Of a stretch of DNA of 64,000 bases, positions 20,358 through 62,708 are shown one piece after another (the first letter of the stretch is position 1; each line of letters starts with the position of its first letter). The notes below the pieces were generated by a model. The model worked only from the letters and a program-made list of their open reading frames with translations, was not told the DNA's origin and did no database searches. The DNA is taken from contig CAWCLO010000010.1 in NCBI GenBank assembly GCA_963796455.1, forward strand, positions 672,001-736,000, read 5' to 3'. This DNA is from Candidatus Sulfomarinibacteraceae bacterium (GTDB lineage: Bacteria; Acidobacteriota; Thermoanaerobaculia; Thermoanaerobaculales; Sulfomarinibacteraceae). Both the position numbers and the translations under genes were made by a program.

Positions 20358-20716
20358 GCTCGATGTTCGACGGTGGATCACCGCTGTCCAAAACACAGCT
20401 TACAGCGGCAGTGTTCAGCGACGGCGACAGTGACCAGCGACCGGGAACAGCGACAGAGGACAGCGGCGGCGGCAGGGGACAGCGATCAGGAGTCCGGTCG
20501 GCGAGTTCGGTCCCCGCGAACCAGGCGAAAGGCGACGGCCGAGTCTGTTCCCCGCCCCTGACCCTGATAACCGTCGCTGATATCTGTCGCTGTTGACTGG
20601 CCCTGCCGCTGACTGCTTTTCGCTGACCCTGTCTGCCGTTCTCCACCCCTGATATCGTGGCGAAGCGTATCGACTGATCGCGCCACCGAGCATCCAGCAT
20701 CCAGCATCGAGGATCG
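20358..20716. repeat. composite inverted repeat element: outer GATGCT(C/G)/CAGCATC heptamers, inner degenerate CAGCGA/TCGCTG hexamers
   Basis: Inner arms about 20395-20490 and 20556-20640; outer right arm (CAGCATC)n 20688-20716; same architecture at 47163-47520. Confidence 0.75.
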
Positions 20717-27161: not shown

Positions 27162-27326
27162 GTTCAGGGACAGCGACAGCGAAAGCAGACAGCGTCGCGA
27201 CAGGAAGTAGTCAGCGTCAGTCCTCAGCGACAGCTTCAGCAATCAGCGAACAGCCTTCACTTCGCCGACTGGACTCCTGATCGCTGAACCCCGCCGCTGC
27301 CGCTGAACCCTGTCGCTGCCGCTGAA
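27162..27326. repeat. inverted degenerate CAGCGA/TCGCTG hexamer arrays (same family as 20358-20716)
   Basis: Left arm 27162-27255, right arm 27276-27326; reverse complement of 27262-27286 matches 20480-20504 at 24/25. Confidence 0.78.
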
Positions 27327-27411
27327 ATTCGGGATCGGGACAACCGCGAATCGGAAATGGCAAAAACCAACCCGACTCCAATGTGCTTGGGTAAAGTAAA
27401 CTCGTTCCACC

Positions 27412-28799: not shown

Positions 28800-28905
28800 G
28801 AGTTCGGAATTCGGAATTCGGAGATTTCACACTCCGTCCCTCAGCGCTCAGAGAATCTCGGCTAGCGGAGCTGCATTCCAAACTCCGAACTCCGCCCTCC
28901 GAACT
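28800..28905. repeat. inverted heptamer arrays (GARTTCG)n ... (CTCCGAA)n between convergent genes
   Basis: GAGTTCG GAATTCG GAATTCG GAG ... ATTCCAA ACTCCGA ACTCCGC CCTCCGA ACT. Confidence 0.8.
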
Positions 28906-30035: not shown

Positions 30036-30104
30036 GAGAAAGGGGGAAAGGGAGAAAGGGAGAAAGGGAGGAAAGGGGGAAAGGGGGAAAGGGGGAAAGG
30101 GGGA
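30036..30104. repeat. 69-nt pure purine tract of (GGGRGAAA)-like octamers
   Basis: Only A and G from 30036 to 30104; related copy at 47128-47150; inverted partner at 30934-30950. Confidence 0.9.
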
Positions 30105-39305: not shown

Positions 39306-39404
39306 AACCGCAAAGAGCGCAAAGAGCGCAAAGAAAGTCTCTTTGTTCGCGAGACGCAAAGGGTCCTTTGCGATGTCTTTGCGTTCTTCGCGGTCTTAGC
39401 GGTT
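39306..39404. repeat. inverted CGCAAAG-type nonamer arrays bounded by AACCGC...GCGGTT
   Basis: AACCGCAAAG AGCGCAAAG AGCGCAAAG ... CTTTGCGTT CTTCGCGGT CTTAGCGGTT. Confidence 0.85.
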
Positions 39405-47042: not shown

Positions 47043-47162
47043 ACCGCCCACCTGGATACGGGATCCAGGTCACAGGATTCATCGCACACCGTCCTCCCTC
47101 TCCGATCCCGCTCCCGAAAGGGTGCATGGGAGAAAGGGGGAAAGGGAGAACGCCCGCAACAC

Positions 47163-47520
47163 GATGCTCGGTACTCGATGCTGGATCACTCTTTTCCAAG
47201 AGAGAGCCTCGGACAGCGTACAGGGACAGGGAACGGCTGACAGCGACAACGAACAGGAGTCAGCGGCAGCATTCAGTCATCAGCGGCTGTCTTCAGCGAC
47301 AGCGTCCAGTCGACCGGTATGGAGAGCTGAAATCAAGACTTTGGTCGAGCAAACGGCAGGTCATCGCACGGACCTGATCGCTGCCCCTGATCTCTGCCTC
47401 TGAACACTGATCCCTGTCGCTGACGCTGGACAATGTCCCTGCCGCTGCAATTCCTGCACAGAGACGGAAACAGAGAAGGGCGCCTGGAAGCTTTTGCGAC
47501 ATCCAGCGTCCAGCATCCAG
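47163..47520. repeat. composite inverted repeat element (same family as 20358-20716)
   Basis: GATGCTC GGTACTC GATGCTG GATCAC, then CAGCGA-like and TCGCTG-like arms, then CATCCAG CGTCCAG CATCCAG. Confidence 0.75.
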
Positions 47521-47745: not shown

Positions 47746-47794
47746 GAAATCCGAAATCCGAAATCCGAAATCCGAAATCCGAAATCCGAAATTC
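47746..47794. repeat. (GAAATCC)x6 plus GAAATTC heptamer array
   Basis: Six perfect units and one variant, starting 8 nt after the mnmA stop; reads TTTCGGA on the mnmA strand, like the array after purB. Confidence 0.95.
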
Positions 47795-48873: not shown

Positions 48874-48976
48874 AATTTCAGATTTGGAATTTCGGAATTC
48901 GGATTGACCGTCCTCCGCCCCCGTTTCCCAGAGAGGGTGGGCGGAAATTCGAAATCCAAAATCCGCAATCCCAAAT
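48874..48976. repeat. inverted heptamer arrays (TTTCGGA-like)n ... (AAATCCG-like)n with inner CCGCCC/GGGCGG stem
   Basis: Left arm 48874-48905, right arm 48944-48976; junction GGTGGGCGGAAATTCGAAAT resembles the one at 556-576. Confidence 0.85.
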
Positions 48977-57443: not shown

Positions 57444-58496
57444 TTATTTTTGTTGAGCCGCGAACATGGGGAATGAGGGAAAAAGTCGAGTTTGCGTTGA
57501 GGTGATCAACCCATTCCGAACGAGACTCCGACTAAGGAGCACGAATGCGAGGGGAAAAGCCCACCGCGAGAATCGGTTGAACCCGGCCGCGCGCTCCTCG
57601 GTCATGGAGCTCGTCAACGCCACCTGGATCAGAGCGACAAAGACCATGATGGTTGCACCGAGGAGAAAGTAGTCGAGGCGGGTGAGGTAAGAGACCGGTG
57701 GCAACGATTGTCCGAGGAGGAAGCGGTAGGCGATGAGAGTCAGCATCGAGGTCACCGCGACACTCAAGCGGGGACCGATGTTTTCGGCGCTGAGCCAGAA
57801 GACCACCCAGGACATGAAAACGATGATGGCGACCGAGATAAAAGCCTTGCCGACATAAAAGCCGAGATGCCGGCGAGCCTCGAAGAAACCCTCCACACCG
57901 GGGATTTCCCGTCCTCCGGGAACGATTGAGTACGGATTCTGCCGCATCAAGAATGAACCGATCGACCAGTCGGGCACCGTCATGGTGGGTGATTGAATGT
58001 CCTTGAAGCCCACGGTGGACGGAGCCATTTCGATCTCGGCCGGAAGATAGCCTGGAATCACCACCTGGAGCGCGAATCGGTGCCGGTCGAGGGGGAAATC
58101 TCGCAGATTGAGGGGCGAGGCGAACTGTCCGTAAAAGCGCTGGCGATAGATGACCGTGCCGTCCGGAGCGATGTCGACCTTTTCGTCAAAGGTCTTCCAC
58201 AAGCGGCGTTGGTTGATGATCTGGACCCGCGGGTTCCAGATGCTGTCGAGTGCTTGTCTGCGGACCCCTTTGATGTCGGCGGCCAGGCGATCGTCCTTCC
58301 ACCGCAACATCATGAAGACATCAGCGGTAAAGCTCTGGTCGGCGCCGTCGATCTTCGAGACATCCAGAAGTACCAATGTGGTATCGACCCGGAGCGGCGT
58401 GCCCTCCTCGCCCGGTCGTGTGCCCGTGAGGTTTTCGGAAGGCGCAGAAACCGAGGCAACCGACATCACAAAGAGCAGAATGAGCAATCGCCGCAT
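57444..58496 (-). CDS. pentameric ligand-gated ion channel (GLIC/ELIC-like)
   Basis: Signal peptide; IWNPRVQIIN, LRDFPLDRH (Pro-loop), SWVVFWL (M1), LPPVSYLTRLD (M2-M3 loop); four TM segments; possible frameshift near the 3' end. Confidence 0.85.
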   Translation of the reverse strand: MRRLLILLFVMSVASVSAPSENLTGTRPGEEGTPLRVDTTLVLLDVSKIDGADQSFTADVFMMLRWKDDRLAADIKGVRRQALDSIWNPRVQIINQRRLWKTFDEKVDIAPDGTVIYRQRFYGQFASPLNLRDFPLDRHRFALQVVIPGYLPAEIEMAPSTVGFKDIQSPTMTVPDWSIGSFLMRQNPYSIVPGGREIPGVEGFFEARRHLGFYVGKAFISVAIIVFMSWVVFWLSAENIGPRLSVAVTSMLTLIAYRFLLGQSLPPVSYLTRLDYFLLGATIMVFVALIQVALTSSMTEERAAGFNRFSRWAFPLAFVLLSRSLVRNGLITSTQTRLFPSFPMFAAQQK

Positions 58497-58622: not shown

Positions 58623-59435
58623 ATGAAACGTACGTTTGTCATTTTCGCTATTGCTTTGCTCGCGCTGGTCAGCGCCCCGAGCGACGTTCAGGCCGCAGAC
58701 AATGCGCCGATTTTGAGCCGGATCGTCGAAAGCGGGACCTTCCGCGTCGGTATGTCCGGGACCCAGCCGCCATTCACGGTGATGTCCAAAGCGGGCAATC
58801 TGATCGGCTACGAAGTTGATCTCGCCAATGTGCTCGCCGATGCCATGGGCGTCAAGGCCGAGTTTGTCCAGATGCCCTTCGGCGATCTGCTCGACGCACT
58901 CGAGGCCGGCAAGATCGACGCCATCATGTCGGGTATGACCATGACCCCCCGGCGCAACCTTCGCGCGGCCTTCGTCGGTCCCTATATCGTTTCCGGTAAG
59001 TCGATTCTGACCACTTCGAGCGCCCTGGCCGCCCTCCAGGATGCCGAGGAGATCGATCGTTCGACGATCAAGATCACCGCCCTCAAGGGCTCCACCAGCG
59101 AGAAGTTCGTCAAGACGGTGCTCGAAAAGACGACCTTTATCGGCGTCGATGACTATGATGCCGGTGTCCAGATGGTGCTCGACGGCAAGGCGGACGCCCT
59201 GGTGGCTGATTACCCGATCTGTGCATTGTCCTTGATGCGCTTCCCCGATGCCGGCCTCGCGACGCTGTCCGAGCCGATGACCATCGAGCCGATCGGTATT
59301 GCTCTCGCCCCCGGCGACTCGCTCTACGTCAACATGGTCACCAACTACCTCGGCGCCCTCGAAGGCCTCGGTCTGCTCGAGCTGCTCGAGGAGAAGTGGT
59401 TCGATGACGGCGGTTGGCTGATCCAACTTCCCTAA
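58623..59435 (+). CDS. amino-acid-type periplasmic substrate-binding protein (family 3)
   Basis: AGGAGG RBS; signal peptide; PPF, GYEVDLA, IDAIMSGMTMTPRR, EKWF. Confidence 0.9.
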   Translation: MKRTFVIFAIALLALVSAPSDVQAADNAPILSRIVESGTFRVGMSGTQPPFTVMSKAGNLIGYEVDLANVLADAMGVKAEFVQMPFGDLLDALEAGKIDAIMSGMTMTPRRNLRAAFVGPYIVSGKSILTTSSALAALQDAEEIDRSTIKITALKGSTSEKFVKTVLEKTTFIGVDDYDAGVQMVLDGKADALVADYPICALSLMRFPDAGLATLSEPMTIEPIGIALAPGDSLYVNMVTNYLGALEGLGLLELLEEKWFDDGGWLIQLP

Positions 59436-59486
59436 CAGTTTCCTCGAAGCCAAGCGCTTCAAACGAATCGCTGAAAAGCTGAATTG

Positions 59487-59512
59487 AGGTGGTGCAGTCG
59501 CACCACCTTTTT
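59487..59512 (+). terminator. intrinsic terminator
   Basis: AGGTGGTGC-AGTC-GCACCACCT followed by a T run. Confidence 0.75.
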
Positions 59513-59551
59513 CTTGGGTTAAGATTCTCGGACCCAGGCAGGAGGAAGTTG

Positions 59552-60880
59552 ATGATGTCAAAGAATCGGGCGGGCGGATTTCAAGGTTATTTCGAGTGGT
59601 TCGTCCGCTCCGAGGTCACGGGCAGTGTGCTGCTGCTGGCGTGCACTGTGGTGGCCCTCGTATGGGCCAACTCGCCCTGGGCCGACACCTACTTCGACCT
59701 CCTCCACACATATGTCGGCGTTTCATGGGGCGATGCGGTCTTCAAGTTGTCGCTCCACCACTGGATCAACGACGGCCTGATGGTCATCTTCTTCTTTGTC
59801 GTCGGTCTCGAGATCAAGCGCGAGTTGGTGGTCGGCGAACTGTCGTCGATCGAAAAGGCGAGCCTGCCTGTGGCGGCGGCCATCGGCGGCATGGTGGTGC
59901 CGGCGGCACTGTTCTTCTTCATCAACGCCGGGAGCGAGGGTGCACGGGGTTGGGGCATCCCGATGGCCACCGACATCGCGTTTGCGCTCGGCGTGCTGGC
60001 CATTTTCGGCTCCAGGGCACCGCTCGGGCTCAAGGTTTTTCTTACCGCCCTCGCCATCGCCGATGATCTCGGTGCGGTGGCGGTGATCGCGATTTTCTAT
60101 ACCGAAAAGATCAACATCGCCGCCCTCGGCGTCGGGTTCGTTCTGCTGGTACTGCTCTTTGCTGCAGTCCAACTCAACATTCGTCGCAGGGGATTCATCT
60201 ATCTGTTGATGATCGGCGTGTGGCTCGCGGTCTTTGCCTCTGGGATTCACGCCACGGTTGCTGGAATCCTGATGGCGATGATCATCCCGGTCCGACCGCG
60301 GATCGACCCGCACAGCTTTATCGACTCGACCGAAGCGCGGTTGGATCGCTTCAAACAGAAGGAACTCTCGCGAGAAAGCCTGATCAGCGATTACGAACAA
60401 TTGGAAATCGTCGAGGGCATCCACAGACGAGCCGAAGACACATTGCCTACCGGTCTGGTCCTGGAGCACTACCTGCATCCGATTCAGGTGTGGCTGATTC
60501 TGCCGCTCTTTGCCCTCGCCAACGCCGGTGTGGCCATCGGCGGTGATCTGATGGCGGTGCTGTCGAACCCGCTCGCTCTCGGCGTCATCGTCGGTCTGGT
60601 GGTCGGCAAACCGGTCGGTATCGGCCTGCTGAGTTGGCTGGCGGTGAAAAGCGGTCGCGGCGCGTTGCCGGAGGGGGTGACCTGGCTTCAGGTCGTAGGT
60701 GCCGGTTGTCTTGCCGGCATCGGATTCACCATGTCGCTCTTCATAGCCGACCTCGCTTTTGACAACGAAACGCTCATCGCCACCGCCAAGATCGGGATCA
60801 TCGCGGCGTCGCTCGTTTCGGGGGTCTTGGGATTCGTGATTTTGTCAAAATCTCTGCCGAAGGCTCCCGACTCAAAATGA
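59552..60880 (+). CDS. nhaA: Na+/H+ antiporter NhaA
   Basis: WINDGLM, GLEIKRE, ATDIAF, AIADDLG, GIHAT, FALANAGV, GIGFTMSLFI. Confidence 0.97.
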   Translation: MMSKNRAGGFQGYFEWFVRSEVTGSVLLLACTVVALVWANSPWADTYFDLLHTYVGVSWGDAVFKLSLHHWINDGLMVIFFFVVGLEIKRELVVGELSSIEKASLPVAAAIGGMVVPAALFFFINAGSEGARGWGIPMATDIAFALGVLAIFGSRAPLGLKVFLTALAIADDLGAVAVIAIFYTEKINIAALGVGFVLLVLLFAAVQLNIRRRGFIYLLMIGVWLAVFASGIHATVAGILMAMIIPVRPRIDPHSFIDSTEARLDRFKQKELSRESLISDYEQLEIVEGIHRRAEDTLPTGLVLEHYLHPIQVWLILPLFALANAGVAIGGDLMAVLSNPLALGVIVGLVVGKPVGIGLLSWLAVKSGRGALPEGVTWLQVVGAGCLAGIGFTMSLFIADLAFDNETLIATAKIGIIAASLVSGVLGFVILSKSLPKAPDSK

Positions 60881-60893
60881 CCGACCCGGTTCA

Positions 60894-60928
60894 ATCGCTA
60901 TCGCTATCGGAATCGCTATCGCTATCGA
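60894..60928. repeat. left arm: (ATCGCT)n hexamer array with one ATCGGA variant
   Basis: ATCGCT ATCGCT ATCGGA ATCGCT ATCGCT ATCGA. Confidence 0.95.
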
Positions 60929-60988
60929 ACTTGTACTTGAATCAGGTGCAGAGTAGGTCAGCACGGTTTGGTTCTCGAGGAGGAGCTC

Positions 60989-61381
60989 GTGGTATTCGCG
61001 CATGAAAGCCTGGATGTGTACCGGTTAGCCTTGGAGTACGTGGGTTTCGTGTTTGAGCTCTCTGATCGGCTCGAGGGGTCGGTACGCCATGCGCGAGATC
61101 AACTCCTGCGTGCGTCGCAGTCGATTCCACTCAACATCGCGGAGGGCAATGGAAAGGCGTCCGATGGCGACCGACGGAGATTTTTTGAGATTGCTCGTGG
61201 TTCAACTCTCGAGTGCGCTGCGATACAGGATGTGTTGCAGGTTCAGGGCATCCTGAGTGCGAATGAAAATCAGGTCGCCAAGGAGACGCTTGATCGTATC
61301 GCGGCGATGTTGACGAGGCTTGGCGGAAGAGGTTACTCGGTTGGGGAAGAGATCGACGGGTACGGTGACGCAAAGGACTGA
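60989..61381 (+). CDS. four-helix-bundle protein (23S rRNA IVS protein / Avd-like family)
   Basis: GAGGAGG RBS; F.HESLDVY, DQLLRASQSIPLNIAEG, RFFEIARGSTLEC. Confidence 0.92.
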   Translation: MVFAHESLDVYRLALEYVGFVFELSDRLEGSVRHARDQLLRASQSIPLNIAEGNGKASDGDRRRFFEIARGSTLECAAIQDVLQVQGILSANENQVAKETLDRIAAMLTRLGGRGYSVGEEIDGYGDAKD

Positions 61382-61396
61382 CCAAACGCCCTGCCA

Positions 61397-61436
61397 TTCG
61401 ATCCGATAGCGATAGCGATAGCGATTCCGATAGCGA
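61397..61436. repeat. right arm: (AGCGAT)n hexamer array, inverted relative to 60894-60928
   Basis: 61410-61436 is the exact reverse complement of 60901-60927 (27 bp). Confidence 0.95.
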
Positions 61437-61505
61437 AGCGCCCGCACATTGCTGCGCGGGCTATGAATGCGCGAAGAGGAGTGATGCCGTGACTGGAATC
61501 GGTTG

Positions 61506-62159
61506 TTACCAGCGGAAACCTACGTTGATCGGCATGAATGTCGAGGTGGACTCGGTTCCCACCCAGTGGTACTTGGCCTCGAGGTAGATCACCGAGTCGC
61601 TCTCGAGCCTGAAGGTGATCGCCGCGCCGATGGTGTAGCCGAAGTCGATCGACGACACGGAATCGTCGACCACGGCGCCAGGGGTGCACCCCCACCAACA
61701 CCACCAGGGATAATGGGGGTCGTAATTCGGTCCGCAGGTATAACCCGGCTCGGTCAGCTGGCCCTGGCTGTAGTAGGCGCCGAACCCTGCCTGGACGTTG
61801 AAGCCGACACGACCACCGGTCTTGAGTGCCCAGATTCCGCCCGCGGTCAGCGACCAGATCGACGCATCGCCCCCCGAAGACTCGTAAAAGTCGAGGGCGT
61901 CCCGGGTGATGCCGAAATCGTTGTATCCCAGTTCCATGACGATGCCGAGGGGCCAGTCATTTGGTTTGTAGGTCGCGCCGCCGCTGATGTTCCAGCCGCC
62001 CGAGAGAATATTGCCGGTGTCGCCCTGGGGCGACGAATAACCTGCTGCGATGTGGCCGAACCATTGTTGCCAGCTCTTGTCGAACTGGGCGTCAGCGGTT
62101 GCCGGGACCAGCACCAGCCCGAAAATCACGGCCAGAATCGGCAGACGTTTCAGATTCAT
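61506..62159 (-). CDS. outer-membrane beta-barrel protein (OmpA-TM-like)
   Basis: Signal peptide; alternating beta-strands; YLEAKYH ... PINVGFRW terminal aromatic motif. Confidence 0.8.
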   Translation of the reverse strand: MNLKRLPILAVIFGLVLVPATADAQFDKSWQQWFGHIAAGYSSPQGDTGNILSGGWNISGGATYKPNDWPLGIVMELGYNDFGITRDALDFYESSGGDASIWSLTAGGIWALKTGGRVGFNVQAGFGAYYSQGQLTEPGYTCGPNYDPHYPWWCWWGCTPGAVVDDSVSSIDFGYTIGAAITFRLESDSVIYLEAKYHWVGTESTSTFMPINVGFRW

Positions 62160-62366
62160 CGATGCGTCCCTCCCTGTGCCAGTTCAATTCGAATTCTCGC
62201 TGATTTGGTGTCGCGAATGCAACTTCCGGCCGGGTCTGGCGGGGTGTCGCCGGGCCATGGAATCACAGGGCGCTGGCTTTTGGCTGTAATTGTGCGATAA
62301 TGTCTCGACTTTTCCACGCTCGGCAGGGACAAAATTCTGCACGAGCCTGGGGGGAGAGATAGAGAT

Positions 62367-62708
62367 ATGGAAATCACCAAGCGCACTGTAGGCGACGTCA
62401 CAATTTTGGATCTCAACGGAAAGCTCACCATCGGCAAGGGGGACGTGGTCCTCCGCGATGCACTGGTAGCGGAACTCGAGGGGGGCAGCAAGGCCATTCT
62501 GATCAACCTCGATACGGTGAACACCATCGACTCATCAGGTCTTGGTGAGTTGATCCGCTGCAGGGTGACCTCGAAGTCTCACGAGGCGGAGGTCAAACTG
62601 CTCAACGTCAACATCAAAGCCCGTAAACTTCTGACCATGGCCCAGCTGGTCGGGGTCTTCGAGATGTTTGATGACGAAGAGCTGGCGGTGGCCTCTTTTT
62701 CTGCATAG
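62367..62708 (+). CDS. STAS-domain anti-sigma factor antagonist
   Basis: VTILDLNGKL, LINLDTVNTIDSSGLGELI. Confidence 0.92.
   Translation: MEITKRTVGDVTILDLNGKLTIGKGDVVLRDALVAELEGGSKAILINLDTVNTIDSSGLGELIRCRVTSKSHEAEVKLLNVNIKARKLLTMAQLVGVFEMFDDEELAVASFSA

Follow-up and report, generated by a model that had tools for sequence, protein, structure and literature searches.

In Coxiella burnetii, the intervening sequence (IVS) in the 23S rRNA carries an S23p/PF05635 open reading frame (ORF) and has a 28-bp stem that is cleaved by RNase III (PMC4990558). PF05635 has also been linked to Avd (PMC10053308), the protein of diversity-generating retroelements (DGRs), which is a pentamer (PMC6182149) and a highly positively charged barrel (PMC6182149, PMC10053308). 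REPIN-RAYT systems consist of inverted repeat doublets with a characteristic spacer length and of an HUH transposase gene flanked by the repeats (PMC3337134). The heptamer arrays of Xanthomonas and Nostoc are intergenic, lie near the upstream ORF, often form inverted pairs and are of unexplained origin; they are described without a four-helix-bundle gene, and the term 'four helix' is absent from the main text of the paper (PMC4692102). Among insertion sequences, the IS4Sa subgroup has CA ends and 8-10-bp repeats (PMC2266710). In our literature search, with subscription papers and supplements outside its coverage, we found no description of four-helix-bundle cassettes with repeat arms, and PMC5524665, PMC10910872 and PMC3936711 contributed nothing further. 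The module reported here is apparently undescribed so far and assembled from known parts.

We analyzed a stretch of 64,000 nucleotides (the window) from the genome of a Candidatus Sulfomarinibacteraceae bacterium (G000, 90.5% complete), in which an initial annotation had noticed a four-helix-bundle gene with a hexamer array on each side, the two in inverted orientation. This arrangement is real. The upstream host gene is nhaA, encoding a Na+/H+ antiporter (59552-60880, forward strand; TIGR00773 above cut-off), which lies in an ORF spanning 59489-60880 and probably starts at the ATG that follows a ribosome-binding site (RBS). Its stop codon occupies 60878-60880, and the left array begins at 60894, after the 13 nt originally reported. 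This left arm (60894-60927, forward strand) has six TCG cores with a period of 6 and one variant unit, the third of five. An RBS of its own, GGAGG, was read from the sequence at 60979-60983, 5 nt ahead of the GTG of the four-helix-bundle gene (60989-61381, forward strand, 130 amino acids; TIGR02436 and PF05635 above cut-off). This likely start aligns with the ATG of the homolog in a relative, G018, and an in-frame TTG at 60968 is an alternative start that would give 137 amino acids. The right arm is an inverted hexamer array with six cores, in which the variant is unit 2 of 5 (61404-61436, reverse strand), and a slipped 5-nt unit lies immediately inside it at 61399-61403.

RNA folding placed a GC-rich hairpin without a U-tract at 61440-61461, in the interval between the cassette and the convergent gene, and comparable hairpins were seen by eye after the array at the nhaA junction in G003, G006 and G016. 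Promoter and terminator prediction called nothing at the locus. The convergent host gene (61506-62159, reverse strand) encodes 217 amino acids with a signal peptide and a C-terminal aromatic residue. Its earlier description as an outer-membrane barrel agrees with these two features, by inspection only, and found no Pfam or NCBIfam match. A homolog of this gene adjoins nhaA in G011. Neither target duplications nor transposon ends were seen beyond the arrays of the window copy by sequence inspection and inverted-repeat search, and a script for core and inverse core found no attC site there. The locus matched no Rfam family, 59400-62400 had no rRNA match, no tRNA was found in the window, and profile searches of G000 returned no integron integrase above cut-off. 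As initially stated, no transposase appeared nearby in a family search of some of the window ORFs, which returned NhaA, a substrate-binding protein, STAS and others, and the reported lack of a nearby reverse transcriptase extends to the genome, 90.5% complete, where PF00078 had no match.

The two 27-nt segments at 60901-60927 and 61410-61436 are 100% complementary, as reported, whereas the full 33-nt arms are only 88% complementary when compared end to end. Because the variant is the third of five units on the left and the second of five on the right, the perfect match requires a slip by one unit. The 27-mer occurs 11 times in G000 and the variant-bearing 21-mer 24 times. Among the 68 arrays of at least 27 nt in this genome, 11 contain the 27-mer, and 337 of the 2278 array pairs (15%) share at least 27 nt. 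When counted from the inner end, none of 22 hairpins that lack the gene was perfect, and of the 74 unit pairs in which a variant occurred, only one had it mirrored in the other arm. These copy numbers, together with the unit comparison in the hairpins, rule out the mirrored variant as covariation, and the initial view that it marks co-evolved arms does not hold: each arm at this locus is one draw from a pool of repeats that is shared across the genome. The hexamer array is present in about 100 copies in G000 and is also frequent in sediment contigs, where its contexts are unrelated and no piece spans the cassette junctions. Arm length peaks at six cores, both in G000 (47/116 arrays, a peak inflated by composite repeat families) and in the upstream arms of homologs (25/72).

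When positions 60870-61480 were folded as RNA, the predicted arm-to-arm stem enclosed the whole ORF at -249 kcal/mol (z = -3.6), a value reached by 0 of 20 shuffles. According to this model, the arms of the window copy would pair with each other. The cassette resembles the rRNA IVSs in the PF05635 family of its protein, in an ORF that is looped out by a terminal stem some 28-33 bp long (here predicted), in its sporadic distribution and in the presence of RNase III in the host. It differs from them in lying outside rRNA, between nhaA and a convergent protein gene, in having arms that are tandem hexamer arrays common to about 100 dispersed copies, in carrying its RBS inside the loop and in having relatives with traceable DNA vehicles.

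The four-helix-bundle identity of the protein was borne out by profile searches (PF05635, 75 bits against a cut-off of 33.8; TIGR02436, 67.3 bits against 24) and by an AlphaFold model (pLDDT 87), in which there are four long helices. The best Foldseek matches were 2GSC (Xcc0516; E = 6e-6, rmsd 1.3) and 2RLD, whose entries both contain chains A-E. Avd structures (8UBE and 4DWL) ranked lower, with a TM of about 0.69. Thus similar in fold, the protein differs from Avd in sequence (7% identity), in its host, which has no reverse transcriptase match by which a DGR with template and variable repeats could be recognized, and probably in charge: its sequence is acidic overall (net charge -6, pI 4.9), whereas Avd is highly positive. 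The mean charge of the clade core is +3. No catalytic motif was evident in the fold or among invariant residues.

A scan of a genome collection confirmed 559 relatives of the gene. The best 80 of these, with 58-73% identity, span 17 phylum-level labels that are interleaved on the protein tree, with 42 label changes compared to a minimum of 16 and to 48 after shuffling. Thiorhodococcus mannitoliphagus and Pelovirga terrestris are among the carriers of these homologs. Arms were surveyed at 72 close homolog loci with full unmasked flanks; the window copy was excluded, three loci from the genus were added, and some genomes are repeated. A left arm was found at 67 loci, a right arm at 69 and both at 65, compared with 1/70 and 0/67 in shifted controls. 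The right arm starts within the ORF in 65 of 78 cases and in 61 of these 65 uses a single reading frame, giving an acidic D-x-D-x tail. The packaging of gene plus arms is general and occurs in many phyla. The earlier proposal that gene and arms form a unit is upheld by the two arms at 65 of the 72 close homologs, by paralogs with other units, by the existence of hairpins without the gene and by variation at the nhaA junction.

The TCG core and the period of 6 are constant among the homologs, and the variable triplet shifts jointly in both arms (0.59 vs 0.25 ± 0.03 shuffled; 66 loci, one per genome; 0/2000 shuffles reach the observed value). The composition of the two arms changes jointly from lineage to lineage; the mirrored variant at the window locus is no evidence of covariation. 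As proof of pairing the joint change is weak, because kinship and homogenization within genomes could also produce it.

Alleles at the nhaA junction were compared by eye at 20 loci of the same genus: one had a full cassette (G018), six had arrays without the gene, ten had no evident arrays and three were cut by contig ends. Full, gene-less and array-free alleles are therefore all present in the genus. The G018 cassette also lies 13 nt 3′ of the nhaA stop, and its protein is the sister of the G000 protein (support 87; 97 in a smaller tree), whereas the nhaA genes of the two genomes are not sisters in a poorly resolved tree. The cassette gene is intact in both (pN 0.22, pS 0.85), with synonymous sites near saturation, as they are in nhaA. 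No vehicle ends are present at the window copy, and since the nhaA genes of G000 and G018 are not sisters, its arrival at this junction would call for multiple losses or local transfer. In the simplest reading of these sequences, the window cassette is likely an old resident that was lost or replaced in other lineages.

The 73 TIGR02436 matches in G000 comprise the window gene, three other singletons and one multicopy family (family B). Each of the other singletons has inverted arrays of its own, so that G000 has four array classes with one full gene apiece. Across the genus, 15 of the 17 four-helix-bundle genes outside family B had arms of matching period (6, 7 or 8 nt) on both sides in a survey of 31 loci, 8 of which had no match and were hence unscored, and in a quick tree the arm period tracked the protein group. 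Inverted arrays of different units thus flank paralogs as well. We detected the hexamer-clade gene in three of the 25 genomes from the genus. G013, an 83% complete genome, has 284 array matches and no hexamer-clade gene was found in it, while G018 has the gene and only two array matches. A simple coupling of gene to array within the genus was accordingly not found.

Gene-less hairpins were most regular in G013, where a 26-nt spacer separated arms of mostly 33 nt (33-26-33) in 19 of 20 hairpins, a sample selected from paired sites among the first of the array matches. About half of the 92-bp hexamer hairpins that form a burst in this genome lie within one larger composite repeat. In G000, three hairpins had a 26-nt spacer and the clearer ones had spacers of 20-32 nt, and spacers of 4-95 nt were seen in loci of other phyla. 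Where hexamer arrays of G000 bound a longer interval as a pair, the interval contains other repeats rather than genes. The spacers of 22 gene-less hairpins fell into 11 families, with a residual identity of 8.0 of 22 vs 6.7 of 22 after shuffling. We found no support for a scenario in which the 26-nt spacer would be a piece of host DNA to which arms were added on each side, and some apparently 'unique' spacers are related. At one G000 hairpin site, array-free alleles in relatives measured about 7-35 nt and were too diverged for alignment, and no junction across a gene-less hairpin was found in the DNA contigs searched. The gap between convergent genes at C8:106.7k of G000 and at its orthologous sites contains, in most species, a repeat hairpin that differs between them, built of the hexamer or of one of several heptamers, and is otherwise only 7-35 nt long. 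Within the window, gene-less inverted heptamer pairs with gaps of roughly 40-55 nt lie at 495-595, 1351-1454, 28803-28905 and 48874-48976, and inverted 9-nt arrays surround a nested shorter inverted repeat at 39309-39403.

Traces of movement were found around relatives of the module. A relaxed core-complement test recognized attC-like ends around eight of the 67 homolog loci, where 0.52 would be expected; three of the eight come from one genome, and a stricter script gave 0/80. Four copies in one genome had exact 8-bp duplications (4/4) and GG...CC ends, as judged by eye, and belong to an element that we take to be ISL3-like. An ISL3 transposase in G008 starts with an end motif that is also found beside family-B genes of G005, G008 and G014. 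Most homolog loci had no vehicle ends detectable by the tests used. In G000, profile searches for mobilizing enzymes returned no reverse transcriptase, IS256, Tn5-type or ISL3 match and no IS4 partner.

G000 contains 63 full copies of the sister family B, which was also matched in 16 of 24 relatives. Its ends are associated with 9-bp duplications that were exact in 21 of 83 cases vs 1.87 expected and, at non-array targets, lay within one mismatch in 10 of 29 vs 0.07 expected. Ends of the same type flank an IS4 transposase in metagenomes (NF033592, 256 bits; cut-off 115), and a search of 25 genus genomes recovered such a transposase from one of them, which is not G000. The family-B ends fit subgroup IS4Sa, which has CA ends and 8-10-bp repeats. 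With IS4-type ends, 9-bp duplications, a passenger gene and no transposase, family B resembles mobile insertion cassettes and passenger-carrying IS4 derivatives; MIC231 is presumably a comparable mobile insertion cassette. The window copy is unlike these in having no such ends, and the passenger here is a repeat-armed module that also occurs in attC-like cassettes and in another element. The initial annotation had proposed that the unit itself may be mobile. This was not supported: the window copy has no mobility ends, and the traceable movement of its relatives uses borrowed attC-like, 8-bp-duplication or IS4-type ends.

Of the family-B ORFs, 55/63 are intact, with a dN/dS of 0.16. Purifying selection acts mainly on shared variants, 137 of 202 being synonymous vs 56 under neutrality, compared with 39 of 100 private variants vs 28 (p = 2e-6). 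Such a pattern would be expected if the protein aids the spread of its copies. Alternatively, the diversity may have been inherited from source lineages, because mosaicism or homoplasy marks the family-B copies (four-gamete failures, 45-83%). Breakpoints shared by gene-less family-B copies show microhomology. IS4-type ends occur in the window only at 20379 and 47187. The former is the left end of a gene-less family-B derivative (20376-20690) with inverted degenerate CAG arrays followed by a heptamer array, and the latter is the one end of a family-B remnant (47185-47520) that retains a 3′ fragment of the ORF amid 8-mer and 7-mer arrays. A further family-B-type remnant at 27165-27330 consists of inverted degenerate CAG arrays without a gene. 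In G017, an IS4 element with family-B-type ends lies between inverted heptamer arrays.

Taken together, we consider it somewhat probable that the window copy is a complete, long-resident passenger module whose arms are predicted to pair and whose protein would bind the arrays, and that its relatives are carried by borrowed vehicles. The window module encodes no mobility enzyme. By their sequence footprints, its relatives moved within attC-like cassettes, a non-autonomous element with 8-bp duplications and, for the sister family with its 9-bp duplications, IS4-type ends. Between such vehicle events, the arrays likely serve as recombination or landing sites at the 3′ ends of genes, and copies that lost the gene would remain as the hairpins and single arms that are scattered in these genomes. 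The protein would assemble, as its solved relatives do, into a pentameric ring that would bind its own five-unit array, as RNA or single-stranded DNA, thereby helping the module to persist. This last part is more tentative than the rest, and we regard it as a fair guess that may well be wrong. It is suggested by the modal arm length, the coupling of period to clade, the presence of five chains in both 2GSC and 2RLD and the fact that Avd is a pentamer, while the acidic charge of the protein and the loose coupling of gene and array count against array binding.

If the passenger reading is carried further, PF05635 proteins in general could be sequence-specific pentameric array readers, with one period and core per clade (five units with a TCG core in this one), that act as a cis-preferring cofactor for the spread of cassettes and hairpins by any transposase or integrase. 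We regard this generalization as unlikely. If true, it would be the first function of PF05635 outside retroelements and the cause of 6-8-nt intergenic arrays in many bacteria. The module joins two old loose ends, namely what the '23S rRNA intervening-sequence' proteins do and where short-period intergenic arrays come from. The hexamer clade provides a sharp test case, with a core and period that are constant over many phyla and a modal five-unit arm that equals the chain count of the solved relatives, and the natural variants with other units allow specificity swaps. The selection pattern in family B is what a protein that aids the spread of copies would give.

A competing explanation, which we judge improbable, is a RAYT/REPIN-like relationship in which the single-copy four-helix-bundle gene acts in trans to replicate or maintain the gene-less hexamer hairpins of its genome. 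The likeness to REPIN-RAYT systems extends to inverted doublets, to a spacer of 26 nt in 19 of 20 G013 hairpins (more variable elsewhere) with diverged sequence, to decayed single arms and to a small gene that has its own class of repeat on either side. The constant 33-26-33 geometry despite diverged spacers (11 families among 22), the one full gene for each of the four array classes in G000 and the concentration of family-B selection on shared variants (p = 2e-6) all speak for such a trans factor, as does the absence of hexamer arrays within 600 nt of any of the six Y1 transposases in G000 (0/6). However, the protein has no evident catalytic motif, the genome with the most hairpins (G013) is one in which the clade gene was not found, and in G018 the gene is accompanied by hardly any arrays. 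The movement of the sister family is accounted for by the IS4 transposase, and its shared variation may stem from source lineages, its copies being mosaic or homoplasic. Unlike in REPIN-RAYT systems, the arms here are tandem arrays rather than palindromic REPs, the flanked gene encodes a four-helix bundle rather than an HUH transposase, gene and array are loosely coupled across genomes and the homologs are widely scattered across phyla.

Next in order, and also doubtful, is a domesticated host module, in which the arms would be RNA-stability or transcription-boundary signals at the 3′ ends of genes, the protein a reader serving the host, and mobility incidental. An intact gene at an identical junction in two species (pN 0.22, pS 0.85) and the many array classes at the same intergenic sites in relatives would suit this explanation. 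So would the Xanthomonas heptamer arrays, which like ours are intergenic, lie near the upstream ORF and are often inverted pairs (PMC4692102); our hexamer module is unlike them in its period of 6, its TCG core and its tie to a gene family. Yet 10 of 20 same-genus nhaA loci have no arrays, 22 of 25 genomes yielded no clade gene, and the homologs are scattered over phyla and ride mobile vehicles.

Placed just below it, and likewise improbable, is the model of the initial annotation, an IVS-like unit that is cut by RNase III from the nhaA transcript and moves by itself through an RNA or single-stranded DNA intermediate. The predicted stem of about 30 bp does resemble the 28-bp Coxiella IVS stem cleaved by RNase III (PMC4990558), the protein family is the same, and an RNase III gene is present in G000. 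But the cassette lies outside rRNA in a genome where no reverse transcriptase was found, the window copy has no self-made ends or duplication, and the gene-less hairpins have no mirrored variants (0/22 perfect). Such cleavage may well take place, but by itself it would leave the DNA where it is. The observation behind the annotation was thus partly confirmed and its interpretation partly supported. Chance proximity of an ordinary small gene to two independent copies of a common intergenic repeat is very improbable: with about 100 array copies in G000 and 27 nt shared by 15% of random array pairs such a match could arise, but both arms with the same polarity at 65/72 homologs in unrelated genomes, and the inverted arrays of the other three G000 singleton paralogs, contradict it.

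Several other features were recorded in the source genome. The six Y1 (RAYT-like) transposases lie at C4:1143.4-1147.4k, C4:209.8k, C1:952.6k, C1:740.6k and C8:150.8k, and several are flanked by palindromic or direct repeats of their own. A single DDE transposase gene at C7:291074-292150 has terminal inverted repeats of ~21 bp that are unrelated to family B. The segments C10:770619-777833 and C2:1-7218 share 7.2 kb at 96% identity, possibly as a strain-level overlap or a duplication. In the window, single 8-mer or 7-mer arrays, from classes of about 50-100 genome copies, lie at 30038-30104, 47116-47150 and 47746-47792, and a gene for a prokaryotic pentameric ligand-gated ion channel occupies 57444-58496 on the reverse strand (PF02931 and PF02932 above cut-off).
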